DNA of 64,000 bases from Clostridiales bacterium (GCA_021202775.1 JAJQCJ010000004.1:4517-68516), one strand, 5' to 3'. Shown: positions 9,674 to 54,497, counted from the stretch's first letter. The notes: a model not told the origin generated them from the sequence alone. Translations and numbers: made by a program.

Positions 9674-10039
9674 ATGGACTGGAACATCGCCTCAGGCCGG
9701 CCCATCTGGCTCCAGCTGAAGGAGGAGCTGACCCGCCGCATCGTCGTCGGTGCATACCCCATGGGCAGCCGCTTCCCCACTGTGCGGGAGCTGGCGGCGG
9801 AGGCGGGGGTCAACCCCAACACCATGCAGCGGGCCCTGTCCGAGCTGGAGAAAGACGGCCTGGTGGAGAGCAACCGCACCGCCGGACGGCTGGTGACCTC
9901 CGACGCCCAGCGGGTGGAGGAAGTGCGGAGCCGGCTGGCGGCCCAGCTCCTGGAGGAGTTCTGCCGCGGCATGGAGGGGCTGGGCTATACCCCGGCTCAG
10001 ATACAGCAGAAGTTGAAGGAGGAAAATCCCTATGAATGA
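9674..10039 (+). CDS. GntR-family transcriptional regulator, YtrA subfamily
   Basis: 121 aa with a winged-helix segment FPTVRELAAEAGVNPNTMQRALSELEKDGLVES and a short C-terminal region typical of YtrA. AAGGAGG RBS. It overlaps the next gene by 8 nt. Confidence 0.9.
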   Translation: MDWNIASGRPIWLQLKEELTRRIVVGAYPMGSRFPTVRELAAEAGVNPNTMQRALSELEKDGLVESNRTAGRLVTSDAQRVEEVRSRLAAQLLEEFCRGMEGLGYTPAQIQQKLKEENPYE

Positions 10040-10733
10040 ACTGGTACACCTTTCCGGCGTCACCAAATCCTACGGCAGGCAGGCCGCCCTTCTGGATGTG
10101 AATCTGGATTTGCAGCCGGGCCGCATTGTGGGGCTGCTGGGCCCCAACGGGGCGGGCAAGACCACCCTGATCAAGCTGTTAAACGGCCTGCTCCAGCCCG
10201 ATGCCGGGGTGGTGGAGATCGACGGCAAAGCGCCGGGGGTCTACACGAAGGCCATCGTCAGCTACCTGCCGGACCGCACCTACCTGGCGGAGTGGATGAA
10301 GGTGGGGCAGGTGCTGGACCTGTTTCAGGATTTTTACGCCGACTTTGACCGGCCCAGGGCGGAGGCCATGTGCGACAGCCTCCACATTCAGCAGTCCATG
10401 AAAATCAAGACCATGAGCAAGGGGACGCTGGAGAAGATGCAGCTGGTGCTGGTGATGAGCCGCCGGGCCAGGCTCTACCTGCTGGACGAACCCATCGCCG
10501 GGGTGGACCCCGCCGCCCGGGACTATATTATGGACACCATCCTGTCCAACTACAACCCGGAGGGCACCGTCCTGATCTCCACCCACCTGATCGCCGACGT
10601 GGAGCGGGTGCTGGACGAGGCCGTGTTTCTTCGGGAGGGCCGGGTCATCCTCCACGACACGGTGGACGACATCCGGGAGCGGGAGGGCATGAGCCTGGAC
10701 GAGGTGTTCCGGGCCATGTTCCGCATGATTTGA
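10032..10733 (+). CDS. ABC transporter ATP-binding protein
   Basis: 233 aa with Walker A GPNGAGKTT, Walker B LYLLDEP and H-loop STH. Confidence 0.9.
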   Translation: MNELVHLSGVTKSYGRQAALLDVNLDLQPGRIVGLLGPNGAGKTTLIKLLNGLLQPDAGVVEIDGKAPGVYTKAIVSYLPDRTYLAEWMKVGQVLDLFQDFYADFDRPRAEAMCDSLHIQQSMKIKTMSKGTLEKMQLVLVMSRRARLYLLDEPIAGVDPAARDYIMDTILSNYNPEGTVLISTHLIADVERVLDEAVFLREGRVILHDTVDDIREREGMSLDEVFRAMFRMI

Positions 10734-23312: not shown

Positions 23313-26310
23313 ATGGCAAAAAAAGAAAAGAAGAAGGGCACCGGCGTAGTCAAGTGGTCGGTGCTGACCGCTGTGATGGCGATCATCATGATCGCCGGCT
23401 TTGTTGGCAACTATTTCGGCGGCGTTTATGCCACCACAGTGAATATCTACCTTGGCACATCCACCTATAAAGTTGTGAACGGCAACGACGATGCCGTGTA
23501 CTTTACCAGTGACTTCTCCAGCCAGGAAGAGCTAGAGGCTTACGAAGCGGAGCTTTGCGCCACTGTGGAAGCGGAAGGCGCGGCCCTGCTGACCAACGAG
23601 AACGATGCGCTGCCTCTGGCATCCGGCGCCAAGGTGAGCCTGTTCGCCCGTGGCTCCGTGGATCTGATGTACGGCGGCACCGGCTCCGGCTCCGTTGACA
23701 CCAGCGCCGCCCCCACGCTGCTGGAGGCCCTGACCACCTATGGCATTGAGGTCAACCAGACCCTGTGGGATTGGTATGAGTCCGTAGCGGACAGCTACAG
23801 CCGCGTGACCCCCGCCGCCATCTCCGACGTGCTGGAGGCCAACACCCAGTATGCCGTCAACGAGGCTCCCTGGTCTGAGGTAGAGGCCGGCGCCGGCGAT
23901 TCCTTCGCTGAGTACGGCGACGCCGCCATCGTGGTGTTTTCCCGCTCCGGCGGCGAGGGCGCTGACCTGCCTGCCGGCGATACCGGCGCTGACCTGTGGT
24001 ACAGCTCCGGCTCTGAGGGCGACGGCAACTATCTGGCCCTCTCCGCGGAGGAGCTGGAGCTGCTGGCCGGTCTGAAGGAGCTGAAGGATGAGGGCGTGTT
24101 CCAGTCCATCATCGTCCTGCTCAATACCTCCAACGCCATCGAGCTGGACTTCCTGGACCCTGACGTCTGCGGCGTGGATTACGGCGTGGATGCCTGCATG
24201 TGGATCGGCGACGTGGGCCAGACCGGTGCCAACGGCGTGGCGCAGCTCCTGTCCGGCGCAGTTTCTCCCTCCGGCAGCCTGGTGGATACCTATTGGTATG
24301 ACAACCTGGCCAACCCCGCTGTGACCAACTTCTACGCCAGAGAGTATCCCAACGCCTCTGATTACGGCTTCTCTTCCGACGATGCCGACTATGGCAACCA
24401 GGCTATGTACAGCGTCTACCAGGAGGGCATTTACCTGGGCTACCGTTATACCGAGACCCGCTATGAAGACGTGGTGATGGGCACTGCCAATGCCGGTGAC
24501 TTTGACTATGCCTCCACCGTGGCCTATGCCTTCGGCTATGGCATCAGCTATACCACCTTTGAGTACAGCGATTATTCCATGACCGCCACCGATGACGGCT
24601 TTGAGATCACTGTCACCGTCACCAACACCGGCGACACCTACTCCGGCAAGAAGACCGTTCAGGTTTACTTCCAGAGCCCCTACACCGATTATGACAAGGC
24701 CAACGGCATTGAAAAGGCCAGCGTAGAGCTGTGCGGCTATGCCAAGACCGACACCCTGGCCCCCGGCGAGTCCGAGACGGTCACCATTACGGTGGACAAG
24801 TCCGAGCTGCGGACCTATGACTCCAACAACGCCCAGACCTACATTCTGGACGCCGGCGATTACTACTTCACCGTCGGCAACGGCTCTCATGACGCCATCA
24901 ACAACATCCTGGCCGCCAAGGGCTACACCACTGCGGACGGCATGACCGCCGACGGCGACACCTCTCTGGTCGCCACCTGGACCCAGGACACTCTGGACAC
25001 CGAGATTTTCGCCACCTCCGAGGCCACCGGCACCGCCATCACCAACCTGTTTGACGAGGCCGACCCCAACAAGGCTTCCTACAGCCCCGGCGAGGTCACC
25101 TGGCTGTCCCGTTCCGACTGGGAAGGCACCTATCCCACCGGCACCTTCGACCTGACCATGAACGATGAGCTGGCGGCTGAGCTGGCTACCACCCGTTACG
25201 ATTCCTCCGAGGTGGAGGAGATGGAAATGCCCACCCTGGGGGCGGACAACGGCTTGAACCTGTCCTCCATGATCGGCAAGGACTACGACGACCCCGATTG
25301 GGATCTGCTGCTGGATCAGCTGACCTATTCTGAGATGGTGGAAACCATCACCCTGGGCTTCCACAACACCAAGCAGGTCAACTCTGTCTCCAAGCCCGCC
25401 ACCAGCGACGAGAACGGCCCCCCAGGGCCTGACCGCCTCCCTGACCGGCGGCGACTCCGCCATGTGCTATACCTCTGAGGACGTGATGGCGGCTACCTTC
25501 AACGATGAGTTGATTTATCAGGTGGGCCTGTGCATCGGCGAGGACTGCCTGGGCCACGGTTATTCCGGCCTGTACGGCCCCGGCATCAATATGCACCGCA
25601 CCGCCTATTCCGGCCGTAACTTCGAGTATTACTCCGAGGACCCCTACATTGCCGGTACCATCTGCGCCTCCGAGGTGCAGGGCATCCAGTCCAAGGGCGT
25701 CTATGTCTATCTGAAGCACGTCGCTCTGAACGACTCCGAGACCAGCCGTGAGGGCGTCAGCACCTGGCTCAACGAGCAGGCTGCCCGTGAGATCTATCTG
25801 GAGGTGGCCGACAAGGCCATCGTGGACGGCGGCGCCTGGTGCGTCATGTCCGGCTTCAACCGCTGGGGCGCTTACTGGTGCGGTGAGTACTACAACCTCC
25901 AGACCGCTTACCTCCGGGATGAGCTGGGCCTCCAGGGTATGTCTCTGACCGACTTCTCCGGCTATAGCCACTACATGGATCTGCCCGATGCCCTCATCGG
26001 CGGCACCGACATCTATGACAGCCCTGCAACGCTGATCCATACTGCTGACGCTTACGCAGCGGCCTATGATGAGAATGACCCCTACATGATTCAGGAAATG
26101 AAGGACGCCATGCACCGTATCCTGTATACCGTGGCCAACTCCAACGCCATGAACGGCTGGGATGAGAATACCTACATCAAGACCGTCACCCCCTGGTGGC
26201 AGATGGCTGTCTATGCAATCATCGTGGTCGGCATTGTGGGTACGATTGCCTGCGCGGTGATGCTGGTTCTGGCCATCCGCAGGAGGAATGCCGCAAAGGC
26301 CGCAAAGTAA
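23313..26310 (+). pseudogene. circularly permuted GH3 beta-glucosidase-like enzyme, reading frame broken at a C6 run
   Basis: Track ORFs 23313-25478 and 25462-26310 are two frames of one gene. The first part holds an N-terminal TM helix, the GH3 C-terminal alpha/beta-sandwich domain (GGTGSGSV, GEGADL, IVLLNTSNAIE, LSGAVSPSGSL) and an Fn3-like domain (FGYGISYTTF). The second part holds the GH3 TIM-barrel domain (GRNFEYYSEDPY, KHVALNDSE, VMSGFNRW) and a C-terminal TM helix. Removing one C from cccccc (25418-25423) gives a continuous DENGPQGLTASLTGGDSAMCYTSED. Confidence 0.8.
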
Positions 26311-26394: not shown

Positions 26395-27975
26395 ATGAGT
26401 GAAGAAACTAAAACAGCGCCTGCAGGTGTGAACCGCGCGAAAATGTATCAGCTGGTGCTGTTCCCCATGAACAACGGGGCCACCAACGTCTACTTCGTCC
26501 TGGTGCTGTCCTATGTGGCCCAGTTCGGCTCCAGCGTGCTGCAGCTGGGGATGTTCGCGTCCATCATGGTGACGGTTATGCGTGTGACCGACGCCATCAC
26601 CGACCCTGTTATCGGCGCACTGATGGATCGCACCAGCACCAGAATTGGCAAGTTCCGTCCCTTTATGATTCTCGGCAGCGCCATTATGGCGGTCAGCGTC
26701 CTTATAATGTATGTGCTGCTGCCCTTCATTCCGGAGAGCATGATGGCCCTGCGGTACATCGGCTTCGTGGTCATTTACTTCATCTGGGTGATTGGCTACA
26801 CCTTCCAGACCTCCTGCACCCGGGCCGGGCAGACCGTGCTGACCAACGACCCCAACCAGCGGCCCCTGTTTACCATTTTCAATACTGTCGGCTCCCTGCT
26901 GGGCATGGGCGTTATGCAGTTCATGATCCCCATCATCAAGAATATGTACAACGTCTATGACGATGCCGGCAACCTGCTGACCTCCGGCTACGCCCGTCCG
27001 GAACTGTACCGCGTGATTGCTCCGATCGGCATCGTGGTGTCTGTCCTCCTGACCATCCTGGCCATCATCGGCATCGCCGGGAAGGACCGCCCCGAGTTCT
27101 ATGGCATTGGCGGCGGCAAGCAGGAGAAGGTCAAGGTCTCCGAGTATGTGGAGATCATTAAGAGCAATAAACCCATGCAGCGGCTGATGGTGGCCGGCGC
27201 AGGCTGCAAGCTGGCCCTGGCCATCGCCACCAACACCACGGTGTTGCTGGCCCTCTACGGCATCTTGATGGGCAACTACGACAGCCTGTACCTGCCCATG
27301 ATGGTTCTGGGCTATGTCTGCTCGGTGCCATTCTTCCTGATGTCTGCCCGCACCTCTCAGAAGCTGGGGCAGAAGGCATCTCTGACCCGATATGTCTCCG
27401 TGGCGCTGATTTGCTACGTCGGCGTGCTGGCCCTCCTGCTGCTGTGCGACCACACCAGCGGCAGCGCCCTGACCCTGTCCTTCCCCTACAATGGCGGCGG
27501 CGGCATCAATTTGTACACCATCCTGTTCATCCTCTGCTTCGGCATCGGCTACGGCGCGTATTATGCTACGGCGGATATGCCCATCCCCATGGTGGCGGAC
27601 TGCTCCGACTACGAGACCTATCGCTCCGGCAAGTACATCCCCGGCATTATGGGAACCCTGTTCTCTCTGGTGGATAAGCTGGTGTCCTCTCTGGCCCAGA
27701 CCCTGGTGTCGATTATCTTCCTGATCTGCGCGGGGCTCAGCGAGCTGCCCACCGACGCCACCCCCTATTCCGGCGGCATCAAGGTGGCGGTCATCGTCAT
27801 GTTCTGCGTCATCCCCATGCTGGCCTGGGCGGCCACCCTTTGGGCCATGCACGGCTACTCCCTCACCGGCGAAAAGATGAAGGAGATTCAGGCCGTCAAT
27901 GCCAAGCGCAAGGAAGAGGTTGCCAACGGCATGACCCTGGAGGACGCCATGAAGAAGTGGCCCGGCGAGGACTGA
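26395..27975 (+). CDS. GPH-family (glycoside-pentoside-hexuronide) cation symporter
   Basis: ATG at 26395, 8 nt after TGAGG. About 526 aa and 12 TM helices, with the GPH loop motif DAITDPVIGALMDRTSTRIGKFRPF. Confidence 0.85.
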   Translation: MSEETKTAPAGVNRAKMYQLVLFPMNNGATNVYFVLVLSYVAQFGSSVLQLGMFASIMVTVMRVTDAITDPVIGALMDRTSTRIGKFRPFMILGSAIMAVSVLIMYVLLPFIPESMMALRYIGFVVIYFIWVIGYTFQTSCTRAGQTVLTNDPNQRPLFTIFNTVGSLLGMGVMQFMIPIIKNMYNVYDDAGNLLTSGYARPELYRVIAPIGIVVSVLLTILAIIGIAGKDRPEFYGIGGGKQEKVKVSEYVEIIKSNKPMQRLMVAGAGCKLALAIATNTTVLLALYGILMGNYDSLYLPMMVLGYVCSVPFFLMSARTSQKLGQKASLTRYVSVALICYVGVLALLLLCDHTSGSALTLSFPYNGGGGINLYTILFILCFGIGYGAYYATADMPIPMVADCSDYETYRSGKYIPGIMGTLFSLVDKLVSSLAQTLVSIIFLICAGLSELPTDATPYSGGIKVAVIVMFCVIPMLAWAATLWAMHGYSLTGEKMKEIQAVNAKRKEEVANGMTLEDAMKKWPGED

Positions 27976-28020
27976 GTCCTGTTCCGGCACAAAGCCCTTC
28001 CAGCGCCTTCCATAGCAGTT

Positions 28021-28062
28021 AAACAGAGCGGCTGCGCTTTTCGGAGCGCAGCCGCTCTGTTT
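28021..28062 (+). terminator. long perfect hairpin downstream of the symporter (terminator-like, weak T-tail)
   Basis: aaacagagcggctgcgct (28021-28038) pairs with agcgcagccgctctgttt (28045-28062). Confidence 0.55.
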
Positions 28063-28139
28063 CGCCCCTGGGCTTCGGCGGGAAGGGGCCGGAGGTTCCC
28101 CTCCCGGAAGAAACAACCGGGCTGGAAACAAATCCGCGG

Positions 28140-28168
28140 TTGATAAACCCGCGCGGTTGTGGCATAAT
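28140..28168 (+). promoter_or_regulatory. sigma-A-type promoter of the repeat-protein gene
   Basis: TTGATA (28140-28145)-17 nt-CATAAT (28163-28168). Confidence 0.5.
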
Positions 28169-28211
28169 AGAAGTTAATCTATGATGAGCTAAAACTCCGG
28201 GAGCGTTCTGC

Positions 28212-30056
28212 ATGAAAAAAGGTTGGCAGGCTGTGACGGCGTTGGCGCTGGCTGTGCTCTGCGGCAGCATCCTGGCACCAACCGCAGCCGCGGTAGAGCT
28301 TGATTTCAATGGTATATATGAGCATCCGGTGCGGGTGGCGGTGGGCGTGGTCTGCCTTGTGGCGGCTGTGGCGCTGCTGCTCTATCGTGTGCTGCGGCAT
28401 CCCATGGACAAGGCCAGACGCTCCCGCAGCTATGGCGGGGACAAGGGGGCCAGAGGCCCGTCGATGGAATCCTATCGCCGGTCCCGCCGGAAAAAGAAGT
28501 CGCCCAGCGGCGGCGTGTTTGGCTTGCTGTTGCCCAGCTACAAGGGCAGGAGGCAGGGGCGGGCCGGGCCGTCGGTGTCTGTGGCTGCGCCGGAGCGCCA
28601 TCGCACGGTGAAGCGCCGCCGCGCCCCGTCGCCCATTCGGGGCTTCTCCAATCAATCCTATAAGGGCGGCGGCAGCGCGGCAGGCACCGCCAACCCCCGC
28701 ACGATCTTACCGGACAGCTATAAGGCGCCCTGGGGCAGCAAAGGCCGCTACGGCACCCTGCGCCTGAAATCGGGCGAAGCGCGGTACAGGGGCGGCGGCA
28801 GCGCGGCGGGCACCGCCAATGTCCGCACCGCCCAGCCGGACAGCTACCGGGAGCCCTGGGGCGGGAAGAAGCGCTACGGCGGATTTTCCCTGCCCGCCCT
28901 TCCGATTCCCTATCTGGGCCGGAGGAAGGAGGCGGATTCCACCGTAAAAGGCCCCCACACGCCGGCCAGACACACCGGGAAGGGGATTCTCCGTCCCGCC
29001 CCGGCGAAGGTCACTGTGGCGACGCCGGAACGCTACCGGGAACGCCTTGGCCTGCGGCGGCGCTACGGGATGAAAAATCCCCGGGATGAGATACCGATTT
29101 ACCACGGCGGGAGCCATGTGCTCCGGGCGGCCAGGGTGGCGCTGGCTGCGCCCATGAGCTATCGGGAGCCCTGGGGCAGCAGGCGGCGGTACGGGACGCA
29201 GACCGTCATGGACTGGCTGCCCGTTTACCGGGGCAGCGTCTCCATCACCAGGAGCAGGAACGCCTACCCCGCCGTCCCCCTGAGCTATCGGGAGCCGTGG
29301 GGAAGGAAATCCCGCTACGGCAAGGGGGCCGTCCCCTATGTGCTGCCCCAGAGCCACCGGGAGCCTCAGGGGATGCAATCCCGCTACGGTAAGGGGGCTG
29401 TCCCCTATGCGCTGCCCCAGAGCCACCGGGAGCCCCAGGGGATGCAATCCCGCTACGGCAGGGGGGCTGTCCTCTGTGAACTGCCCCTGAGCTACCGGGA
29501 GCCCTGGGGGAGGAAAGCCCGCTACGGCGAGGGGGCCGTCCCCTATGCGCTGCCCCAGAGCCACCGGGAGCCCCAGGGGATGAAATTCCGATACGGCAGG
29601 GGAGCCGTCCCCTGTGAAGCGCCCCTGAGTTACCGGGAACCCTGGGGAAGGAAGGCCCGTTACGGCAGAGGGGCCGTCCCGGACGAACTGCCCCTGAGCT
29701 ATCGGGAGCCCTGGGGACTCCTGCGCCGCTACGGCGCGGGGGACCCGCTGGAGCGGACGGCCCTGCCGCTGCCCCTCCCCTACCTGGGGGGCAGCACCAC
29801 CACCGCAAAGGAGCCGTGGATCGACCCGGACACGGGGCGGCTGGCGGAGCCGGTGCAGCCCAGCCGGAAGCAGTACGGCAACAGGCGCTATGGCGGGAAA
29901 CTCTACGGCGGGCGCATCGTCCGGTACCGGGAGGAGGAGCCGCCGGACGGCAGCACCGTCCTGCACGACGAGGAGGTGTCGGACAGCAGCACCGCCCTGC
30001 ACGACGGGGAGGACGGCCTCCGGTATGCGGCACAGTCCGACGCCACAGATACATAA
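28212..30056 (+). CDS. membrane-anchored, highly basic tandem-repeat protein (S-Y-R-E-P-W-G-x3-R-Y-G repeats), no recognisable family
   Basis: 614-aa ORF with a GGGAG RBS 8 nt upstream, its own promoter and its own terminator. It opens with a signal-like N-terminus MKKGWQAVTALALAVLCGSILAPTAAA, then one TM helix VRVAVGVVCLVAAVALLLY followed by RVLRHPMDKARRSRS. The rest holds at least 11 motif copies and an acidic C-terminal tail. Confidence 0.7.
   Translation: MKKGWQAVTALALAVLCGSILAPTAAAVELDFNGIYEHPVRVAVGVVCLVAAVALLLYRVLRHPMDKARRSRSYGGDKGARGPSMESYRRSRRKKKSPSGGVFGLLLPSYKGRRQGRAGPSVSVAAPERHRTVKRRRAPSPIRGFSNQSYKGGGSAAGTANPRTILPDSYKAPWGSKGRYGTLRLKSGEARYRGGGSAAGTANVRTAQPDSYREPWGGKKRYGGFSLPALPIPYLGRRKEADSTVKGPHTPARHTGKGILRPAPAKVTVATPERYRERLGLRRRYGMKNPRDEIPIYHGGSHVLRAARVALAAPMSYREPWGSRRRYGTQTVMDWLPVYRGSVSITRSRNAYPAVPLSYREPWGRKSRYGKGAVPYVLPQSHREPQGMQSRYGKGAVPYALPQSHREPQGMQSRYGRGAVLCELPLSYREPWGRKARYGEGAVPYALPQSHREPQGMKFRYGRGAVPCEAPLSYREPWGRKARYGRGAVPDELPLSYREPWGLLRRYGAGDPLERTALPLPLPYLGGSTTTAKEPWIDPDTGRLAEPVQPSRKQYGNRRYGGKLYGGRIVRYREEEPPDGSTVLHDEEVSDSSTALHDGEDGLRYAAQSDATDT
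29277..29759 (+). repeat. in-frame tandem array, 7 x 69 nt (23 aa), two unit subtypes
   Basis: Subtype A is PLSYREPWGRK.RYG.GAVP... and subtype B is PQSHREPQGM..RYG.GAV..... The order is A-B-B-A-B-A-A(degenerate). Adjacent B units are nearly identical over their first ~45 nt. Confidence 0.85.
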
Positions 30057-30091
30057 AAAGCGGCAGGAAACCGGTTCCTGCCGCTTTTTTT
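30056..30091. terminator. bidirectional rho-independent terminator
   Basis: aaaaagcggcaggaa (30056-30070) pairs with ttcctgccgcttttt (30075-30089). The A-run and T-run allow termination for both convergent genes. Confidence 0.8.
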
Positions 30092-30114
30092 GCATAGTCA
30101 AAGGTCCTCCGGGT

Positions 30115-30750
30115 TCAGTAACCCAAATCCTCCCCCACCAGAATGACGTGGATCCTGCCCTCCGGCTTGCAGTGGCGAGTGATGACCGTCTGGGCGCAGA
30201 TGCAGTCCGGGCTGTGGCAGTCCCCACACCTGCCGGTGGCGGCGCAGGGGGTCTCCCGGCCAAGGCGGATGGCGTTGATGGGGGCGGCGATATGGTGGAT
30301 ACGCTCAATGGCGGCGGCCTCGTCTTTGCACACCTTGTTCATCCCGGCCACCACAACGACCTTCTTCGGGCCGAACAGGAGCATGGCCAGGCGGTTGCCG
30401 TTGCCGTCCACGTTGACCAGTTTCCCGTCCAGGGTGACGGCGTTGGCGCTCATGAAAAAGACGTCCGAACCGAAGGACTGCTGATAGATTTGCTGCCGCT
30501 CCTCCTCGCTCCGGGCGGTGCGGCGGTCAATCAGGGTGCAGCCGGAGGCCTCCGCCACCGGGAAGAAGCCGATCTCCTCCAGGGTCATGCTGCCCCCGAA
30601 GGAGACGGAGACGCCGGGCTGCAAAAAGGTCCGCACCTGCGCCAGGGTTTCCGCACGGTTGGCGGCGTAGGCGCCGGTCATACCGTGCTGCTCCAGCCGG
30701 GCCAGAATGGCCGCGGCGGTGATGGTGTTGTACTGTTCACGAGGGGTCAT
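30115..30750 (-). CDS. LUD-domain (lactate-utilisation YkgG/LutC-like) protein
   Basis: 211 aa with the typical blocks FGGSMTLEEIG, FMSANAVTLDGKLVNVDGNGNR and GMNKV and a C-terminal Cys cluster CAATGRCGDCHSPDCIC. Confidence 0.75.
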   Translation of the reverse strand: MTPREQYNTITAAAILARLEQHGMTGAYAANRAETLAQVRTFLQPGVSVSFGGSMTLEEIGFFPVAEASGCTLIDRRTARSEEERQQIYQQSFGSDVFFMSANAVTLDGKLVNVDGNGNRLAMLLFGPKKVVVVAGMNKVCKDEAAAIERIHHIAAPINAIRLGRETPCAATGRCGDCHSPDCICAQTVITRHCKPEGRIHVILVGEDLGY

Positions 30751-40444: not shown

Positions 40445-40657
40445 GGAATCCCTCCTTCGGGAGACGGGCAGGTGTGCCGCCTGCCGGGCAAATAATAGAT
40501 TTGAAACTATTTTAATACATTCTTTTGAAAATGTCAACCGCTGGAAGTGGGGCTTATGGGGGGCCTCCAGCGTCGCAGAAGGCATAAATATTTCTATTTA
40601 AGGATAAAATGCCCTATATTTTACAGTTCTTTCACACAAAATCCCAGAAAGTATGGT

Positions 40658-42220
40658 ATGATTAAAACCATTCTAAAGGAAAGGAGCTTCCAATTGACCG
40701 GTAAAGATCTCATCAAAGAAAAAATCAAAGAAGCCATAGCCTCCGTACTGCCCATCACTGTGGTGGTGGCGCTGCTGTGCTTCTTTTTCATCCCCGTCAG
40801 CACAGGGCTGCTGCTGTCCTTCCTGGTGGGCTCGCTGCTGCTGATTGTGGGCATCGGCCTGTTCACCCTGGGGGCAGATATGGCCATGTCCCCCATTGGG
40901 ATGCACATCGGCGCGAAGATGACAAAAACCCGTCGCCTGTGGCTCATCCTGCTGCTCAGCTTCGTCCTGGGGGTGGCGGTGACCCTGGCGGAGCCGGATT
41001 TACAGGTGCTGGCGGGCAATGTGCCGGGCATCGACACCACCGTACTGATGTGGACGGTGGCGGCAGGGGTGGGGCTGTTCCTGATGCTCTGTATGCTCCG
41101 GGCGCTGTTCCACATTCCGCTGCGGGCGCTGCTGCTCCTCAGTTACGGGCTGGTGTTTCTGCTGGCCGCCCGCTCTGACCCGGACTTCCTGGCGGTGGCC
41201 TTCGACGCCGGAGGCGTCACCACAGGGCCCATGACGGTGCCCTTCATTATGGCCCTGGGTGTGGGCATCACCGCCATCCGCAGCGATGAAAACGCCAGGT
41301 CCGACAGCTTCGGCCTGGTGGCCCTGTGCTCCGTCGGCCCGGTGCTGGCGGTGCTGATTTTGGGCTTCCTCTACCCGAACAGCACCGGCGGGGCGGCGGA
41401 GACCATTGTGCAGGACTTTGCCGACACCGTGGCTTTGGGCACCGGCTACCTGGCCAGCCTGCCCACCTATCTGGAGGAGGTGGCCACCGCCCTTCTGCCC
41501 ATCTTCGCCTTCTTTCTGGTGTTTCAGGTGGCGTCCCTCCGCCTGCAAAGGGTGCCCTTCCTGCGGATTCTGGTGGGGGTGCTGTATACTTATGTAGGGC
41601 TGGTGCTGTTCCTGACCGGTGCCAATGTGGGCTTCTCCTCCCTGGGCTATGTGCTGGGCGGGGCCATTGCGGAGAGCCGTTATCCCTTCCTGCTGGTGCC
41701 CCTGGCCATGCTGATGGGCTGGTTCATCATCAACGCGGAGCCTGCCGTCCATGTGCTGAACAAACAGGTGGAGGAGGTCAGCGCCGGGGCCATCTCCGCC
41801 GGGGCGATGAAGTGGAGCCTCTCCATCGCCATCGCCGTGGCCACAGGGCTTGCCATGGTACGGGTGCTGACGGGGGTTTCCATCCTGTGGTTCGTGTTGC
41901 CGGGGTATATGATTGCGTTGGCCCTGTCCTTCTTCGTGCCGGAGACCTTTACTGCCATCGCCTTTGACTCCGGCGGCGTGGCCTCCGGCCCCCTGACCGC
42001 CACCTTCCTGCTGCCCTTCGCCATGGGGGCCTGCTCCGCCCTGGGTGGGAATATTATGACGGACGCCTTCGGCCTGGTGGCGCTGGTGGCCATGACGCCG
42101 TTGATCACGGTGCAGGTCATGGGCGTCGTCTATGTGGTGAAAACCCGCCGGGCCGCCGTCCGTCCGCCGGTGCCGGACTTTGCCGACCATGACGTGATCG
42201 AGCTTTGGGAGGTGTCTTAA
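40658..42220 (+). CDS. DUF1538-family integral membrane protein (two tandem halves)
   Basis: About 520 aa, polytopic. The two halves share AFDAGGVTTGPMTVPFIMALG and AFDSGGVASGPLTATFLLPFAMG. The start is uncertain: ATG 40658, or TTG 40694, which has the stronger RBS (AAAGGAAAGGAG, 7-nt spacing). Confidence 0.7.
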   Translation: MIKTILKERSFQLTGKDLIKEKIKEAIASVLPITVVVALLCFFFIPVSTGLLLSFLVGSLLLIVGIGLFTLGADMAMSPIGMHIGAKMTKTRRLWLILLLSFVLGVAVTLAEPDLQVLAGNVPGIDTTVLMWTVAAGVGLFLMLCMLRALFHIPLRALLLLSYGLVFLLAARSDPDFLAVAFDAGGVTTGPMTVPFIMALGVGITAIRSDENARSDSFGLVALCSVGPVLAVLILGFLYPNSTGGAAETIVQDFADTVALGTGYLASLPTYLEEVATALLPIFAFFLVFQVASLRLQRVPFLRILVGVLYTYVGLVLFLTGANVGFSSLGYVLGGAIAESRYPFLLVPLAMLMGWFIINAEPAVHVLNKQVEEVSAGAISAGAMKWSLSIAIAVATGLAMVRVLTGVSILWFVLPGYMIALALSFFVPETFTAIAFDSGGVASGPLTATFLLPFAMGACSALGGNIMTDAFGLVALVAMTPLITVQVMGVVYVVKTRRAAVRPPVPDFADHDVIELWEVS

Positions 42221-42271
42221 ACGGAACTCTACTATATCATCAGCATCATCGACCGGGACAGGGCCAGGGAA

Positions 42272-42895
42272 ATGGCCGCCCTCTGCCGGGATACGGGGCT
42301 GAACCTGGTGCTCACCAATCTGGGGGAGGGCACCGCCACCCGGCAGCAGCTCTCCCGCTACGGTCTGGACCGCACGGAGAAGGCGGTGGTCAGCGCAGTG
42401 GCCGGGGCGGACGCCAGGAAGCGGGTGTTCAAAGCCGCGAAACGGAGGCTGTCTATCGACATTCCGGGCAACGGCATCCTGATGGCCGTCCCCGTGAAAA
42501 GCGTAGGAGGCGGCAGAACGCTGACCTATCTGACAGACAGCAAAGTACCCAACGGAGGTGTGCCGGATATGAAGTTTGAATATGAACTGATCGTCGCCAT
42601 CCTGAATGAAGGCTATGCCGACATGGTGATGGACGCGGCCCGGTCCGCCGGGGCCGCGGGAGGAACGGTGCTCCACGCCAGGGGCACCGGCGCGGGGGAG
42701 ACGGAGCGGTTTTTCAGCGTGTCCCTGGCGGAGGAGAAGGACGTGATTTACATCGTCTCCACAGGGAAGGAGAAGGCGGCCATTATGCGCGCCATCAGCA
42801 GCCAGGCCGGGCCGGAGACCAGGGCGGGGGCCATCTGCTTCTCCCTGCCGGTTTCCTCGGTGGCGGGGCTGCGCCGGCTGGACGACGACGAATAG
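42272..42895 (+). CDS. tandem P-II-like (GlnB-fold) protein. The first canonical start lies inside the first beta-strand.
   Basis: It contains two ~100-aa P-II-like units; the second starts MKFEYELIVAILNEGYADMVMDAARSAGAAGGTVLHARGTG. P-II-like sequence (TELYYIISIIDRDRARE) already begins at 42221, right after the in-frame TAA of the DUF1538 gene. No ATG, GTG or TTG occurs before 42272. Confidence 0.65.
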   Translation: MAALCRDTGLNLVLTNLGEGTATRQQLSRYGLDRTEKAVVSAVAGADARKRVFKAAKRRLSIDIPGNGILMAVPVKSVGGGRTLTYLTDSKVPNGGVPDMKFEYELIVAILNEGYADMVMDAARSAGAAGGTVLHARGTGAGETERFFSVSLAEEKDVIYIVSTGKEKAAIMRAISSQAGPETRAGAICFSLPVSSVAGLRRLDDDE

Positions 42896-42968: not shown

Positions 42969-43487
42969 TCACTTCACCCGCAGCCTGCCGCAGTTTTTGC
43001 ACTTGCCGAACACGGACAGTTCGCCGCCGCAGTGGAGGCAGCGGCCTGACCGCATGGGGTTATAGGGGGTGTTCTCAAAGGCGGTCTGGCCCACCTCCTC
43101 CACCCCACCCTGGGTGTTCACCATCTTCAGGTTGATGCAGCCGGAGAAGGCCCCGTCCTCAATGAGCCGGACGCTGGCGGGGATGGTGATGGCCGCCAGG
43201 CGGCGGTTGTCCTGAAACGCCCCTTCCTCAATCACCCGAATACAGTCGGGCAGGGTGAGGGAGGCGGCCCGGCCGGTGTACGCCACCAGCACGCCGTTGC
43301 GCACGTCCAGATACTTCCAGTTTTGCAGGGAGCGGTACAGACGCTCCGTCCGCTCGTCCCCCACGCCCAGCTCCAGCGTCCGCCGCACCAGCCGCTCCGC
43401 ATCGGCAAAGCTGCCCTCCTTGATGTACTGATCCACCAGCCTGGCCCACCGGGCCGCCTGGGATGACCGTTCCTGTTCTGCCGCCAT
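42969..43487 (-). CDS. BspA-type leucine-rich-repeat protein with C-terminal zinc ribbon
   Basis: 172 aa with LRR_5-like units (LTLPDCIRVIEEGAFQDNRRLAAITIPASVRLIEDGAFSGCINL) and a terminal CLHCGG..CKNCG. Confidence 0.6.
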   Translation of the reverse strand: MAAEQERSSQAARWARLVDQYIKEGSFADAERLVRRTLELGVGDERTERLYRSLQNWKYLDVRNGVLVAYTGRAASLTLPDCIRVIEEGAFQDNRRLAAITIPASVRLIEDGAFSGCINLKMVNTQGGVEEVGQTAFENTPYNPMRSGRCLHCGGELSVFGKCKNCGRLRVK

Positions 43488-43619
43488 GGTTCTGCCTCCC
43501 GTGTGTCGTTTTTGATACTTTCATAGTACATGGTTCCGGGCCGTTTGTCAAACGGAACGGAGCGGTACCCTCAAAAAAACAGACACAGGATTTGACCGCC
43601 GGTGCCGCAGGATAAAAAA

Positions 43620-44242
43620 TCAACGCCTCCAAAGTAGCTTCACCTTCACGTTCATTTTTTCTTTCTCTTCCTGGCTGGTGAGCAGTCGGCCAAACACCAG
43701 CCCTGTGATGAGCAGAAATCCGACACAAACCGCCGTCGCCCCGCTGGTCAGATACAGCGCCGCCAGTGTGCAGAAGTAGGTGACCAGCGTGCGATAGTAG
43801 TGGGGCGTGATTTGCAGACACAGGGAGAACAGGAGGAAGAAGGCGGCGAAAATTGCTACCGGTTTGATTGCCGGCAGCAGGCCCAGAAGGCAGCCAAAGG
43901 TGACTGCGATTCCCTTTCCGCCCTGAAAGCAGTAGAAAACCGGCAGAATGTGCCCCAGCACAGGGGCCGTCATCACCAGAGACAGCCAGGGGTCATTCCA
44001 CGGGGACACACCGGAGCCCGCCAGGTAGAGCCCCACGGGGAGCGCCCCTTCAGCAGGTCGCCGCAGAGGGTGAGCAGGCCGCACCGGAAGCCGCCGTAGC
44101 GGAAGGCGTTGAACGCCCCCGGATTTTGATCCGGGCTCTCCTCAATGGCACCCTTCCGGTGAAACAGCCGCTCCGCTATCCGGGCAAACAAAACGGAACC
44201 GGACAGATAGCCGATGATTGTGTAAAAAATGGCTCTTTTCAT
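43620..44242 (-). pseudogene. plsY: PlsY-family glycerol-3-phosphate acyltransferase-like gene, frame broken at a 4-nt homopolymer
   Basis: Track ORFs 43973-44242 (..NPGAFNAFRYGG..LCGDLLKG) and 43620-44084 (ALPVGLY..VLGHILPVFYCFQGGKGIAVTFG..) are consecutive parts of one PlsY-like protein. Adding one G to the gggg run (plus-strand cccc 44045-44048) restores GDLLKGALPVG. Confidence 0.75.
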
Positions 44243-47888: not shown

Positions 47889-48356
47889 TTGAAGGGCAGC
47901 ATTGTAGTCGAGTGCGGGAATGCCATGTTGAAGCATGGGTATCGCCTGAAAATCTTCAATACTATCAACTTCAAGAAGTCGATGCACTACAATCCCTTCG
48001 CCTATATCCACAGCGAGAAGGACATCTTGAAGCTGGTCACGACCCCTATCACTAACACCAAGGGCAACGGCAAGGGCGGCGATCCTTTCTGGGAGAAGGC
48101 GGAGACCCTGCTCTATACAGCGCTGATTGGGTATATCCACTACGAAGCGCCGGTGGAGGAGCAGGACTTTGCCATCCTCATCGAGTTCATTAATGCGATG
48201 GAAGTGTGGGAGGATGACGAGACCTTTGAAAATCCGGTAGACCTGATGTTCAAGGAACTGAAGAAAAAGAACCCAAATCACTTTGCGGTGCGGCAATATG
48301 CCAAGTTCAAACTATCCGCAGGTAAGACGGTGAAAGAAGGAGGAAACCAAACCTGA
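47889..48356 (+). pseudogene. VirD4/TraG-type conjugative coupling protein, internal fragment
   Basis: ..LKHGYRLKIFNTINFKKSMHYNPFAYIHSEKDILKLVTTPITNTKG..DPFWEKAETLLYTALIGYIHYEAPVEEQ..HFAVRQYAKFKLSAGKT matches the middle of Firmicutes ICE coupling proteins. The Walker A N-terminus and the C-terminus are missing. Confidence 0.6.
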
Positions 48357-48657
48357 GCCGGATGCCCGCAAGTCCCTGGGGAGATGCCCGGCCTGCGGTT
48401 CCGATGTGGTGGAGCACCCCAAGTCCTACGCCTGCTCCAACCGGCAATGTAACTTTGCCCTCTGGAAGAGCAACCGATACTTCGAGGCCATTGGCAAGCG
48501 GATGACCGAAAGCGTGGCGAAACGGCTCCTGAAAACCGACTCTGTCCGCATGAAGGACTGCTATTCCAGAAGATTGGACAGGTATTCTGACGCAACCATC
48601 TTCCTGGACTTCGACGAGACCGGCAAAGTCCAGTACAGAATGGAAAAAGGGATGTAA
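48341..48657 (+). pseudogene. ICE-type DNA topoisomerase III, C-terminal zinc-finger fragment
   Basis: ..GRCPACGSDVVEHPKSYACSNRQCNFALWKSNRYFEAIGKRMTESVAKRLLK.. is the C-terminal Zn-finger tail of conjugative-element TopB. It opens right after a TGA at about 48338. Confidence 0.5.
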
Positions 48658-48674
48658 AAGGAGGGGTTCAAGAT

Positions 48675-48872
48675 GGCAGCTTTCGAGATTCCTCTCTTGT
48701 CGGCCCCATTCTTCTGCATTGTCTCACCGTGGGCGGCGCTGAAAATGACAATGTGCGCGCTGTTCTGCCTGCTAATGGTTTACCTGCTCTCCTCTGCCGC
48801 CGAGAGGTACGTGCCGATGCCGGAGCCGCCGACGGAGCGCGCATAGAGCTGAAAAAAACAAACAGAAAATAA
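48675..48872 (+). CDS. small hydrophobic ORF (65 aa by my reading), hypothetical
   Basis: AAAGGAGGGG RBS 6 nt upstream. The product is MAAFEIPLLSAPFFCIVSPWAALKMTMCALFCLLMVYLLSSAAERYVPMPEPPTERIELKKTNRK. It is not listed in the supplied ORF track, so the coordinates need checking. Confidence 0.25.
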   Translation, partial: GSFRDSSLVGPILLHCLTVGGAENDNVRAVLPANGLPALLCRREVRADAGAADGARIELKKTNRK

Positions 48873-48929
48873 AAAATCGGACGCGCCGACTTGCTTGGTG
48901 CGTCCGATTTACTTTGTTTGCCCGTGCTG

Positions 48930-49499
48930 TCAGCCGTTCGGCAGCGCGTCAACAGCGCGGCGGAGAATGGCTTCTGGGTCGTTGCCTATAATGTCCAGCC
49001 CCTCGGCGCTGATGCACTGGGTTTCCCTGATGCCGAACATACCTTTGCAGAGCGCGGCAAGGTTAGCGTAGCCCATGTTCGTCTCCTCGCGCACCGTCCC
49101 GCCGGAGGTCATGACGTACCACAGCTTTTTCGCCTTGCACAGTCCGACGGGCACGCCGCTTTCACTGTAGCGGAACGTCAGCCCGTTTACGCACACCTGC
49201 TCAATCCAGCACTTGAGCACGGCGGGGCAGCTCAAGTCCCAATACGGCGCGGCGACCACGAGCTGATCGCACTCGAGCAGTGCGCGGGCGAAGCGGAACA
49301 TGGGAGCGGAGTAGTCGCCGCGGGCTACAAGCTCGTCGCGCTGCCTGAGCGTCTCGCTCGTGAGGTAAGTCACGCCCTCGGCGGCAAGGTCAATCTCCGT
49401 GACTTCGCCGTGCAGGCAAGCGGCAAGCTCACGCGCAAGACGCAGCGTGCGCGAAGCGGAGCCGCGCACACAGGCGTTGACAAGAAGAATTTTGTCCAT
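48930..49499 (-). CDS. flavodoxin-fold NAD(P)H-dependent oxidoreductase (azoreductase / FMN-reductase-like)
   Basis: 189 aa. The start MDKILLVNACVRGSASRT and the blocks LVVAAPYWDLSCPAVLKCWIE and LWYVMTSGG are typical of the family. Confidence 0.75.
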   Translation of the reverse strand: MDKILLVNACVRGSASRTLRLARELAACLHGEVTEIDLAAEGVTYLTSETLRQRDELVARGDYSAPMFRFARALLECDQLVVAAPYWDLSCPAVLKCWIEQVCVNGLTFRYSESGVPVGLCKAKKLWYVMTSGGTVREETNMGYANLAALCKGMFGIRETQCISAEGLDIIGNDPEAILRRAVDALPNG

Positions 49500-49844
49500 T
49501 TTTCACATCTCCTGCGGAAGAATTCAGTATAAAAAATACCTGCGCAGCTCATAACAGCCGCCTATTGCGGCCATTATAGCACGGCACGCATAAATCCGTC
49601 AATATGAGGCCTTTCAGCTTCTTCCAATGCGGCGCACTTTTTGGCGCGAAGGCCCGTGTGGACGGTGATGTCGCTGCGGCGGAACAGCAGCTTGAACACG
49701 GTACGGATAAGCGGCTGAATGTATATTCCCTGGCTGAATGCTGCCGAGCGTATCGGGGAGCTGATGGAGACCGGTCAGTTTGCCACCAACAAGCAGCGGA
49801 GATATATACCGAGGCATTGCTTGCAGCAGTTGCCCCATGCCATT

Positions 49845-50519
49845 TTATACCCGATCTCTGCGGCAGACTTCAATTGCCGTTCCGGAGAGAAACAGGGCGA
49901 TACCAATGAGCAATGTGAACAGAGCCAACGTGCAGGCATCGGATTGGGAGGCAAGCGCTCCCATAGAAAAGACTGAAATAACCGCAAACAGATTGTCCTG
50001 TGAGAAGAAAGCGGTCATGAAATAGTAGATCAGCGTGAGCATCATGGACACCCCGGAGCTGCGGAAAAGAATACAGATGAAATAAAATAACGCCGCAAAA
50101 AAGATACTCTGTGTGCCAATACGAAGCCATTCCTGCGCCATTCCAATCTGCACGCCCAAGCTCCAAAACCACCACGCCAGCAGCAGGAACAGCAGGGCGA
50201 TATGCAGCAGATACCATAGTATGGCAATCAGACAGCGAAGGGGAATCCCAGTTCTGTCCGGCTCATAGGCATACAGCACCTCTCTCCCGTTTCCCTCCAA
50301 TGATTCCTTTATGACAAGATAAATCCACCACACGGCACAGATCGGAATCAGCGTCTGAAACAGGTTTGTGATGGTGTAAATGCCGTCTGACACACCGAAA
50401 CGGTTTAGTATAAACCAGATGATAAGCGGCAGCAGCACAGCATCAATGAACAAGGGGATACCATACAGTACCCGTTCATTGCGGAAGGTATGGAAGATCA
50501 ATCTGAATTGTTTTTTCAT
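49845..50519 (-). CDS. ABC-2-like membrane permease (hypothetical)
   Basis: ATG at 50519 overlaps the ATPase stop (ATGA). 224 aa and about 6 TM helices. Confidence 0.65.
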   Translation of the reverse strand: MKKQFRLIFHTFRNERVLYGIPLFIDAVLLPLIIWFILNRFGVSDGIYTITNLFQTLIPICAVWWIYLVIKESLEGNGREVLYAYEPDRTGIPLRCLIAILWYLLHIALLFLLLAWWFWSLGVQIGMAQEWLRIGTQSIFFAALFYFICILFRSSGVSMMLTLIYYFMTAFFSQDNLFAVISVFSMGALASQSDACTLALFTLLIGIALFLSGTAIEVCRRDRV

Positions 50520-51358
50520 CCCAGCCCCTTTATGCGGCACAGATACCCGTCTTCAATGGTCGCTTCTTCCTGTGTTCCGTTCTGTTCCACAGGGGAAAGG
50601 ATGCGGAGAAGCCCGTTTCCGCTCTCCTTCTTTAACACAAAAAAGGGGTCCTGCAACTGATCCACCATCGTTTCCGGAACGCTGTACACCTTTCCATCTG
50701 CGATTTTGCAGATGTCCGAGCTGCTTCCGGCACCCACAAGGCTGCCATTGTTGATCAGAATGATATGGTCACAGACGGCCTCCACATCTTCCACAATATG
50801 AGTTGAGAGCAGCACAGTCTTTTCCCCCGAAAGCCTGGACAGAAGTAGCTTAAAACGAGCCCGTTCCTCCGGGTCGAGCCCCGCCGTCGGTTCATCTACA
50901 ATGATAAAATGCGGGTCGCCCAATACCGCCTGGGCGATCCCCAATCGCCTTATCATACCGCCTGACAGAGTACGAATCCTGTCATCTCTACGGTCGCTCA
51001 GATTGACCATTTCCAGGCTCTCCTCAATCATGCTCCGCTGCCTGCTCCGGGGAATCTCTTTTAGTTCTGCAAAGTAACGCAGCATTTCTGTAACGGTATA
51101 GCCGGGAAACAGGCCGAATTGCTGGGGCAGATAGCCGACACAGCGGCTGTAAGCGGTATTTCTTTCGATGCTCGTCCCGTTGTATAAAATCTGACCTTCC
51201 TGGATGGAATAGACGCCTGCCAAAGACCGGATCAGCGTCGTTTTTCCGGCCCCGTTTGGCCCCAGCAGCCCATAGATACCATGCTCCAGAGACAGGGTGA
51301 TGTTGTTCAACACCTGCTTCTTTTTGAAGCACTTGCTCAGTCCCTTGACTTCAATCAT
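50516..51358 (-). CDS. ABC transporter ATP-binding protein
   Basis: 280 aa with Walker A GPNGAGKTT, signature LSGGMIRR and Walker B FIIVDEP. Confidence 0.9.
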   Translation of the reverse strand: MIEVKGLSKCFKKKQVLNNITLSLEHGIYGLLGPNGAGKTTLIRSLAGVYSIQEGQILYNGTSIERNTAYSRCVGYLPQQFGLFPGYTVTEMLRYFAELKEIPRSRQRSMIEESLEMVNLSDRRDDRIRTLSGGMIRRLGIAQAVLGDPHFIIVDEPTAGLDPEERARFKLLLSRLSGEKTVLLSTHIVEDVEAVCDHIILINNGSLVGAGSSSDICKIADGKVYSVPETMVDQLQDPFFVLKKESGNGLLRILSPVEQNGTQEEATIEDGYLCRIKGLG

Positions 51359-53108: not shown

Positions 53109-53249
53109 CTTCCTCTCTGGCGTATGATTCCGGTCCGCTCACGGTATCGAAGGAAAGCTGCCATCCTCATACGCGGTCTGAATCTGTTGCTGCCGGTCAT
53201 GTAAATTTTCAAAGGCTCCACAGCCCCCTCACCTCCCTTCTGAACAGTA

Positions 53250-53272: not shown

Positions 53273-53282
53273 ACAGGTTTTT

Positions 53283-53320: not shown

Positions 53321-53328
53321 CGCCCTGC

Positions 53329-54479: not shown

Positions 54480-54497
54480 CTCCCTTTCTGAACAGTA

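Follow-up and report, generated by a model that had tools for sequence, protein, structure and literature searches.

A conserved gene family of uncultured Clostridia predicted to encode membrane-anchored, basic motif-repeat proteins

We analysed a stretch of 64,000 nucleotides from a Clostridiales bacterium genome (GCA_021202775.1, JAJQCJ010000004.1:4517-68516; called the window below) and found that a gene at positions 28,212 to 30,056 encodes a strongly basic repeat protein of 614 amino acids (aa). Comparison with its relatives indicates that this is a conserved gene of uncultured gut and rumen Clostridia, whose sequence family appears to be undescribed. We have high confidence in the architecture of the product, which consists of a membrane anchor, a basic tail of repeats and a terminal block. 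On its role we are evenly divided between accepting and doubting that the protein serves as a multivalent scaffold or hub, tethered to the membrane on its cytoplasmic face. The elements of the gene and its product are as follows, where dN/dS is the ratio of nonsynonymous to synonymous substitution rates, and pLDDT is the per-residue AlphaFold2 confidence (predicted local distance difference test).

28212..30056 (+): coding sequence, ATG start, 614 aa plus stop; median dN/dS of the + frame 0.30
28212..28292 (+): signal-peptide-like segment, aa 1-27; n-region MKK, then a hydrophobic core, then P-T-A-A-A with its AxA site preceding V-E-L-D
28293..28334 (+): putative extracytoplasmic stub, aa 28-41 (VELDFNGIYEHPVR); end [EQ]-[HY]-P-[VI]-R conserved; dN/dS 0.19 together with the transmembrane (TM) helix
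28335..28385 (+): predicted TM helix, aa 42-58; Kyte-Doolittle 19-mer mean up to 2.53; pLDDT block means 82-84, modelled helix 39-73
28386..28652 (+): highly basic juxtamembrane segment, aa 59-147, with RSRSYG, SYRRSRRKKK and LLPSYKG; pLDDT below 50
28653..28880 (+): two composite A+B modules, aa 148-223, SY[KR]GGGSAAGTAN..R...PDSY[KR]xPWGxxxRYG
29025..29069 (+): degenerate B unit, aa 272-286 (PERYRERLGLRRRYG), kept in orthologues
29151..29195 (+): isolated B unit, aa 314-328 (PMSYREPWGSRRRYG); columns P314, S316-S323 and R326-G328 invariant in the family alignment
29277..29735 (+): B units of 23 residues, seven in tandem, aa 356-508; SYREPWG and SHREPQG types alternate
29781..29915 (+): conserved C-terminal linear block, aa 524-568; dN/dS 0.19; invariant W, P, T, G, and RYGGKLY
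29922..30053 (+): acidic tail, aa 571-614; net charge -10; 12 residues are duplicated within it

The product contains 107 K+R and 50 D+E residues (pI 10.4), with 12.7% R, 12.1% G, 9.4% P and 6.4% Y, in keeping with an earlier interpretation of this DNA made without database searches (the sequence-only reading), which had described its bulk as rich in Arg, Lys, Gly, Tyr, Pro and Trp. It has two hydrophobic segments. The first spans aa 5-27 and ends in AAA|VE, and the second, aa 42-58, is followed by RVLRHPMDKARRSRS. There are six K/R residues in the 15 positions after the TM helix versus one before it, and because of this positive-inside count the bulk of the protein (about 555 basic residues) is predicted to be cytoplasmic and the 14-residue stub outside, in an N-out/C-in orientation. 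The region assigned to the cytoplasm has 103 K+R and 47 D+E residues, with a net charge of +66 over aa 60-570. The sequence-only reading had arrived at the same layout of a signal-peptide-like segment, a tiny outside part, one TM helix and a cytoplasmic bulk.

Several features of this N-terminal module are shared by the relatives, whose proteins and loci we designate by P and L numbers. A TM helix followed by R-S-Y-G is conserved throughout the family, as is the acidic end of the protein, and in the family alignment R41 of the stub is invariant and H38 and P39 are almost so. Most clades retain an AxA|[VLI] site, the most divergent clade among them (AAA|VN, AQA|IN), and the signal peptide is probably cleaved. 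The site is degenerate or absent in P0012, P0013, P0015 and L010, where an acidic N-tail and a basic C-flank are retained; because these are kept, the N-out/C-in orientation would also be expected in the P0012/P0013/L010 clade and in P0015. We considered that the protein might be a lipoprotein and rejected this, because no canonical lipobox precedes Cys17 and P0007 has Tyr in its place.

The repeats follow a strict grammar. Across the family, proteins contain variable numbers of two types of unit, A (S-Y-K-G-G-x-S-x-A) and B. The window protein has 10 strict copies of the B motif S[YH][RK][EA]P[WQ]Gx3RYG and one degenerate copy (ERYRERLGLRRRYG), which makes the figure of "at least 11" in the sequence-only reading a fair one. 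The pattern given there also stands, but its length does not, because an invariant proline at position -2 extends the motif to 15 residues, P-x-S-[YH]-[RK]-E-P-[WQ]-G-x3-R-Y-G. Among 76 unique B units, at positions that were not forced by the search pattern, Pro(-2) is present in all 76, Glu(+3) in 62 and Pro(+4) in 68, while Arg(+10) and Tyr(+11) are each present in 76/76, with Lys and Phe respectively never found in their place. The linker positions between the motifs vary in the same set of units. The spacing of B units is 23 aa in the window protein and 42 aa in P0007, the number of B units ranges from 4 to 11 among close orthologues, and close orthologues have 2-4 A+B modules, L010 up to 11. 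The two longer Y[KR]GGGSAAGTAN...PDSY[KR]xPWG modules that had been noticed earlier are the A+B modules at aa 148-223.

At the DNA level, Tandem Repeats Finder reports the B array as 6.4 copies of a 69-bp unit at 29277-29717 (score 495), with a 207-bp higher-order period. The duplication in the acidic tail, which had also been recognised earlier, corresponds to 2.2 copies of a 36-bp unit at 29934-30012. The C-terminal block that precedes this tail has the family consensus Y-x-G-G-S-T-T-x-A-K-x-P-W-x-[ND]-P-[DE]-T-G ... K-[QR]-[YF]-G-x-x-R-Y-G-G-K-L-Y-x-x-R.

Two positions within the B motif are coupled. Tyr at position 1 is accompanied by Trp at position 5 in 82 of 83 instances, and none of the 21 units with His has Trp while 10 of the 21 have Gln, although these instances are non-independent since units arise through duplication. 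The Tyr-Trp/His-Gln pairing is present in distant members of the family as well. It points to a local contact inside the unit, or else to two ancient classes of unit.

Structure prediction gave confident models only for the N-terminal part of the protein. For the full-length sequence (with an 11-sequence alignment) AlphaFold2 produced a mean pLDDT of 39.5 and a predicted template modelling score (pTM) of 0.18; the helices in aa 1-73 were the only confident region, with means of up to 84 over 10-residue blocks, and almost all of aa 74-614 was below 50, with a slight rise to 52-56 at about residues 530-547. The C-terminal block modelled alone (with a 12-sequence alignment) had a mean pLDDT of 58 and a pTM of 0.18, with no secondary-structure elements, and in these models it does not appear to fold as a domain. 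The charge-hydropathy value of the tail is 0.393 versus a boundary of 0.45, which places it on the disordered side, and the tail is predicted to be intrinsically disordered in vivo.

By a word-indexed search we found 11 relatives of the protein, all of them unnamed or annotated as "hypothetical protein" and all from Clostridiales metagenome-assembled genomes (MAGs). An exhaustive hidden Markov model search with the family profile against 1.84 billion cluster representatives yielded 20 hits, consisting of 19 family members and one spurious hit. The members all come from Oscillospiraceae, Ruminococcaceae or "Clostridiales" MAGs, and similarly the seven loci found among GTDB species representatives are all in MAGs, classified as Clostridiales, Ruminococcaceae (rumen) or Oscillospiraceae. 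When the N-terminal module by itself was used as a profile, it retrieved just further fragments of the same family, many of them frameshifted through assembly problems in the repeats, and no relatives with a different cytoplasmic domain were found with it. These results suggest that the family is narrow and closed and is not a singleton, so the earlier description of the gene as an orphan was overstated.

Many public entries of the family (P0030, P0031, P0034, P0036 and P0037) are fragmentary or switch to an Ala/Pro-rich out-of-frame tail, as would be expected if the G+C-rich repeats had collapsed during assembly or had acquired frameshift errors. The family is thus systematically under-represented and mis-called in metagenome catalogues.

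The statement in the sequence-only reading that the motif fits no named repeat family was borne out by searches of Pfam, NCBIfam, PHROGs, PADLOC and the PDB. Against Pfam, the window protein had only two matches at E <= 10, both below threshold and neither to a wall-binding family: SPMIP4-like (PF15093; 18.7 bits, E = 0.0012, cutoff 27) and TauE (12.2 bits, E = 0.14). At E <= 0.1, seven of eight relatives had no Pfam match, and P0016 had two that were sub-threshold and not wall-binding. We regard the SPMIP4-like match as noise, because it lies below the 27-bit gathering threshold, none of the eight relatives match this family, and no sperm-MIP chain in the PDB was matched at E <= 10. There was no profile match in the Pfam scans to the wall-binding families SLH, CW_binding_1/2, LysM, SH3b or GW. 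NCBIfam, PHROGs and PADLOC gave no match for the window protein and up to eight relatives; for anti-phage defence and phage proteins there was thus no PADLOC or PHROGs profile match, and phage and plasmid records contained nothing similar. The family profile had 0 hits in the PDB, and a permissive PDB search with the repeat region returned only noise. The motif strings do not occur in searchable papers.

Because the gene lies in a G+C-rich repeat with long open reading frames (ORFs) on both strands, and because known domains were not found in its product, one could argue that it is a spurious ORF generated by the tandem repeat, or that the longer of two ORFs on the opposite strand is the true gene. 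The two antisense ORFs, neither of which we regard as a gene, are:

28707..30308 (-): antisense ORF of 533 aa; dN/dS 1.41 in its frame
29245-30054 (-): second antisense ORF of 269 aa; dN/dS 1.42 in its frame

We recovered seven orthologous loci, which together with the window gene make 28 pairs, and calculated dN/dS by the Nei-Gojobori method in all six frames of the codon alignment. The comparison of the + frame with the antisense frames had been proposed in the sequence-only reading, and it places selection on the + frame: the median over the 28 pairs is 0.30, versus 1.41 and 1.42 in the frames of the 533-aa and 269-aa ORFs, and the value of 0.44 in the antisense frame that shares wobble positions is an expected artefact. 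Purifying selection is seen in every region of the gene (dN/dS 0.19 to 0.36); the stub with the TM helix and the C-terminal block have the lowest values (0.19 each) and the tandem B array has the highest (0.36). The frames are intact in all eight orthologues (528-647 aa) despite changes in repeat number, the promoter, ribosome-binding site and ATG are conserved, and homologues can be recognised at the protein level down to 28-32% identity. We therefore reject the spurious or antisense interpretation, which on this sequence comparison has almost no chance of being correct, and the two antisense ORFs appear to be by-products of the G+C-rich repeat.

The G+C content at third codon positions (GC3) of the gene is 0.83, equal to that of neighbouring genes, which argues that the gene is native. 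Its overall G+C content is elevated (0.69 versus 0.61) because of its Gly, Arg, Pro and Ala codons. We rejected an origin from a mobile element, given this GC3 value and the lack of a match in phage and plasmid records.

The gene forms a transcription unit with its own promoter and terminator, whose elements are:

28021..28062 (+): terminator hairpin of the upstream MFS-symporter gene; 19-bp stem, -41.3 kcal/mol, z = -5.7
28130..28169 (+): promoter; conserved block AAATCCGCGG at 28130-28139, -35 TTGATA at 28140-28145, 17-nt spacer, extended -10 TGTGGCATAATA at 28158-28169
28199..28203 (+): ribosome-binding site GGGAG, 8 nt 5' of the ATG; GGAGCG unchanged in eight loci
30055..30091 (unstranded): intrinsic terminator hairpin after the family gene, -25.3 kcal/mol, z = -6.6; common to the convergent LUD-domain gene

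All the parts of the complete expression unit that the sequence-only reading had proposed (a promoter, a GGGAG ribosome-binding site, an ATG and a strong bidirectional terminator) could be located. The promoter, TTGATA-17-CATAAT at 28140-28168, matches the consensus at 10 of 12 positions; its -10 hexamer CATAAT (28163-28168) is preceded by TG and is of the TRTG extended type. This is the sole promoter-like (sigma-70-like) site in 27800-30400, where 0.2 would be expected from shuffled sequences. The hairpin at 30055-30091 is flanked by A5 and T7, which makes it plausibly bidirectional, and it plausibly serves both the family gene and the convergent LUD-domain gene. A pattern scanner overlooked it, probably since the palindrome extends through the loop. 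Because there are terminator hairpins on both sides, at 28021-28062 and 30055-30091, the unit is insulated at both ends, and the monocistronic part of the earlier description holds.

The promoter is conserved among relatives. Across eight orthologous loci the block AAATCCGCrG-TTGATAAAC-N-TTGTGGCATAATAG, the ribosome-binding site and the ATG are invariant, and further 5' of this block the sequences are unrelated. The 12-mer TGTG[CG][GC]ATAATA has a single occurrence in the 64-kb window (0.01 expected); in 10 of 12 loci it precedes the family gene, and among these are loci of homologues with only 28-32% protein identity. Judged by consensus sequences, this would be a housekeeping-type (sigma-A-type) promoter with an extended -10, conserved family-wide. 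In the P0012/L010 clade the extended -10 lies 150-190 nt 5' of the start codon (L003 1338-1495; L010 5641-5839) and the leader is therefore long; the leaders of L003 and L010 match no Rfam family and have no obvious likeness to each other. Rfam likewise gave no match in or near the family gene.

Because a tRNA gene precedes the family gene in three of the orthologous loci, the upstream junction appears to be a point of rearrangement among close relatives, with the promoter left intact. In these loci (L007, with the tRNA gene at 2673-2745, L008 and L009) the family gene begins about 200 nt after the tRNA gene.

We propose the following working model for the protein. A cleavable signal peptide, or in some relatives an acidic N-tail alone, would place a stub of 12-14 residues outside the cell, and a single helix would span the membrane, leaving about 555 residues in the cytoplasm. 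This cytoplasmic part would be a disordered polycation made of repeated 15-residue motifs separated by variable linkers, followed by the C-terminal block and a short acidic tail. The anchor would fix the scaffold to the inner face of the membrane, and each copy of the motif would offer an equivalent binding site (a "sticker" rich in Arg, Tyr and Trp) to a ligand that is plentiful in the cytoplasm, with copy number setting the valency. Because the motif is conserved and copy number and linker length are free to vary, the repeats look like short linear binding motifs, and not like a folded repeat domain or a mere spacer. The putative ligand would most plausibly be a polyanion (RNA, DNA, polyphosphate or anionic lipid head-groups), or alternatively a partner protein. 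Given the net charge of +66 and the regular recurrence of Arg, Tyr and Trp, a polyanion, or self-association by cation-pi contacts, is the most economical guess. The data would fit a protein partner, or an enzyme that recognises and modifies the motif, just as well.

The composition and predicted disorder (mean pLDDT 39.5) make it plausible that the protein binds a polyanion or forms condensates, as the sequence-only reading had proposed, at odds well below those of the scaffold function. A still more specific version would make the protein a bacterial organiser of a kind not recognised before. It would be a sticker-and-spacer polycation, anchored in the membrane of Oscillospiraceae, whose 10 or more identical motifs gather RNA, DNA or polyphosphate into a two-dimensional condensate or brush at the cytoplasmic face, with copy number tuning the valency and the external E-H-P-V-R stub coupling it to something outside. 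We think this version unlikely.

The multivalent scaffold has to be weighed against other functions. In one of these the protein is a passive tether or spacer: the C-terminal block alone would bind a specific partner, and the repeats would set its distance from the membrane or supply charge. The ZipA P/Q linker (PMC6904479) and the central repeats of CotG (PMC9765600) are precedents for this, the C-terminal block and the stub with the TM helix are the most constrained regions (dN/dS 0.19) and the B array the least (0.36), and the repeats vary freely in number, between 4 and 11 copies. However, a pure spacer would not be expected to keep a 15-residue motif at about 30% protein identity, with near-invariant Pro, Ser, Glu, Pro, Gly, Arg, Tyr and Gly, nor to keep the Tyr-Trp/His-Gln coupling, and the C-terminal block does not seem to fold into a binding domain. 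We consider a passive tether unlikely, if worth keeping in mind. It is less probable again, in our view, that the protein is a structural component of the spore, produced by the mother cell, with its anchor in the outer forespore membrane and its basic, Tyr-rich tail contributing to the basement layer of the coat, as a functional analogue of CotG-like proteins that might be phosphorylated or cross-linked through Tyr. Its composition and modular layout do resemble that class (PMC9765600). A cytoplasm-facing tail on the engulfing membrane would face the coat, and at least one carrier lineage has sporulation genes, since SpoVAD adjoins the family gene in L011. That adjacency, though, is convergent and was seen in this one locus only, and the family-wide promoter is of the sigma-A type, TTGATA-17-TGnCATAAT/GATAAT. 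It appears to be a poor match to the -10 consensus of sigma-E or sigma-K. Moreover, neither cotH nor sporulation genes were found among the 30 window proteins scanned (about 19.0-62.3 kb; ORFs at 1-18.9 kb lie outside the scan), and the CotH domain was likewise absent from the called or scanned neighbours in L001-L004 and L010-L012. CotG-like proteins are also soluble and have been described only in Bacillus, whereas a membrane anchor is predicted here.

The protein could also be exported in full, as an envelope protein whose basic repeats bind anionic wall polymers (teichoic acids or polysaccharide) or serve as a Tyr/Lys/Pro-rich adhesive of the mussel-foot type. The N-terminal signal peptide with its AxA site would suit such a protein, and basic repeat domains are typical of Gram-positive wall-binding modules. 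The P-x-S-Y-K context bears a superficial resemblance to adhesive decapeptides. This is nevertheless very unlikely to be correct: the signal peptide is followed by a strongly hydrophobic segment of 17-20 residues with six K/R on its C-terminal side, as expected of a stop-transfer anchor, relatives that lack a signal peptide keep the same TM helix and charge asymmetry, and the SLH, CW_binding, LysM and SH3b profiles do not match. There are also points that weigh against the membrane-tethered scaffold itself. The predicted disorder comes from shallow alignments of 11-12 sequences, and AlphaFold2 can miss repeat folds that form only upon binding or oligomerisation. Signal-peptide cleavage and topology were assessed by rules of thumb, and some relatives have no recognisable signal peptide. 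The Tyr-Trp/His-Gln coupling suggests some local structure inside each unit, the spacing of aromatic residues is not significantly more even than in shuffled sequence (p ~0.07), and conservation of the motif is equally compatible with a site of post-translational modification or with a structural (cross-linked) material.

The closest known systems are analogues of the protein and not relatives, and each of them fails at least one defining feature. ZipA is an N-out/C-in bitopic protein with few residues outside the cytoplasm, a charged juxtamembrane segment and a long unstructured Pro-rich cytoplasmic region (PMC6904479). The single-pass anchor in this orientation and the unstructured cytoplasmic linker are shared with the window protein, where both are known in silico only. 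However, ZipA ends in a globular FtsZ-binding domain, whereas the window protein ends in a block that is not predicted to fold and has no Pfam match to ZipA_C. The ZipA linker has no conserved repeated motif and is not polycationic. The window protein also differs in its cleavable-looking signal peptide and in coming from a Firmicute, as opposed to a gammaproteobacterium, and there is no sequence similarity between the two. HubP/FimV proteins (PMC12918733) are multivalent recruitment hubs with an extracytoplasmic N-terminal part, one TM helix, a very large charge-biased cytoplasmic region with imperfect repeats and a conserved C-terminal element, all of which have counterparts in the general layout of the window protein. 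They have a periplasmic LysM domain whereas the window protein has a 14-residue stub and no LysM match, their cytoplasmic region is acidic whereas that of the window protein is basic (103 K+R versus 47 D+E), and they end in a TPR-like FimV domain whereas the end of the window protein has no Pfam or NCBIfam match and no predicted fold.

CotG-like proteins are soluble proteins of about 170-200 aa with 6-7-residue repeats, encoded next to cotH and described only in Bacillus (PMC9765600). They resemble the window protein in having central, positively charged tandem repeats rich in Lys, Arg, Ser and Tyr, predicted disorder, expansion of the repeats by internal duplication, and interaction modules on their N- and C-terminal flanks. 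The window protein differs in its length of 614 aa, its predicted membrane anchor (two hydrophobic segments, with pLDDT 82-84 in the TM helix), its 23-residue units containing a 15-residue motif with Trp, Pro and Gly, and its apparently sigma-A-type promoter; cotH is not nearby in the scanned neighbours, and the hosts are Oscillospiraceae, Ruminococcaceae and 'Clostridiales' MAGs. Low-complexity sticker-and-spacer regions of the RGG and [G/S]Y[G/S] type, rich in Arg and Tyr, and the Arg-rich C-terminal half of RNase E are likewise disordered and enriched in Arg, Gly, Tyr and Pro, with many evenly repeated aromatic and Arg positions, and RNase E is associated with the membrane and binds RNA through Arg-rich segments. 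The window protein has no catalytic or RNA-binding domain, and RNA binding and phase separation are candidate properties of it. Its repeat is also a long, strictly conserved motif, in contrast to the degenerate, dipeptide-like elements of RGG and YG regions.

In the window, the family gene lies between unrelated operons, as had been claimed from the sequence. Upstream is a GH2/GH3/MFS sugar cluster, and downstream are the LUD-domain gene (-, convergent), an arylsulfotransferase-like gene, TraX and MatE. Close relatives retain the order LUD, arylsulfotransferase, SmpB on the downstream side and differ on the upstream side. In the distant homologues every locus has different neighbours:

L002: glutamate dehydrogenase
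L003: pterin-binding protein
L010: QueA, AI-2E transporter, LarC and LarB
L011: SpoVAD and IMPDH
L012: RuvX and DUF1292

There is no recurring partner gene among the loci that we compared (the window, L001-L004 and L010-L012). We considered the arylsulfotransferase, encoded two genes downstream, as a possible modifier of the tyrosines and rejected it, because it is kept only in the close relatives L001 and L004 and absent from L002, L003, L010, L011 and L012, a pattern of ordinary synteny. In L007 a tmRNA gene (9841-10222) is located about 5 kb downstream of the family gene, and SmpB is syntenic in L001 and L004. The flanks of two distant homologues contain a 6S RNA gene (L012 2939-3131) and a lysine riboswitch (L010 591-772), both unrelated to the family gene.

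Some other parts of the window are also of interest. The GH3 glycosidase upstream of the family gene (23313-26310, +) consists of two ORFs that overlap by 17 nt, the first (23313-25478) with GH3_C and an Fn3-like domain and the second (25462-26310) with the GH3 N-terminal catalytic domain and a hydrophobic C-terminal anchor. These may be two genes, or else a single domain-permuted GH3 that has been split by a frameshift, whether genuine or introduced in assembly. At 40547-42895 (+), a DUF1538 membrane protein gene is followed by one for a P-II-like protein, apparently as a conserved pair. Short ORFs at 42969-44084 (-) match only parts of two proteins, a BspA-type leucine-rich repeat protein (ORF of 172 aa) and PlsY (ORF of 154 aa, covering positions 66-154 of the 164 in the profile), and they may be truncated genes or pseudogenes. 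The region at about 47889-55225 has a lower GC3 (0.57-0.80 versus 0.8-0.9 elsewhere) and contains a truncated fragment of a type IV secretion system coupling protein (47889-48356), a flavodoxin-like protein, an ABC ATPase, an extracytoplasmic function (ECF) sigma factor (53991-54479) and a zf-HC2 anti-sigma factor (53329-54018); it may be what is left of an integrated conjugative element.

The family is unannotated, often fragmented or frameshifted in databases, and yields long spurious antisense ORFs, and a family model would improve its annotation. Its narrow distribution limits its wider importance for now. The motif and the alternation between Tyr-Trp and His-Gln units offer handles for peptide pull-downs (for example with synthetic PLSYREPWGRKARYG and PQSHREPQGMQSRYG) and for mutagenesis. 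If the scaffold reading is true, the family would add a basic, motif-repeat kind to the short list of bacterial membrane-tethered disordered hubs that includes ZipA and HubP/FimV, and it would represent a natural case of Arg/aromatic multivalency with tunable valency in a poorly studied but abundant lineage of the gut and rumen.

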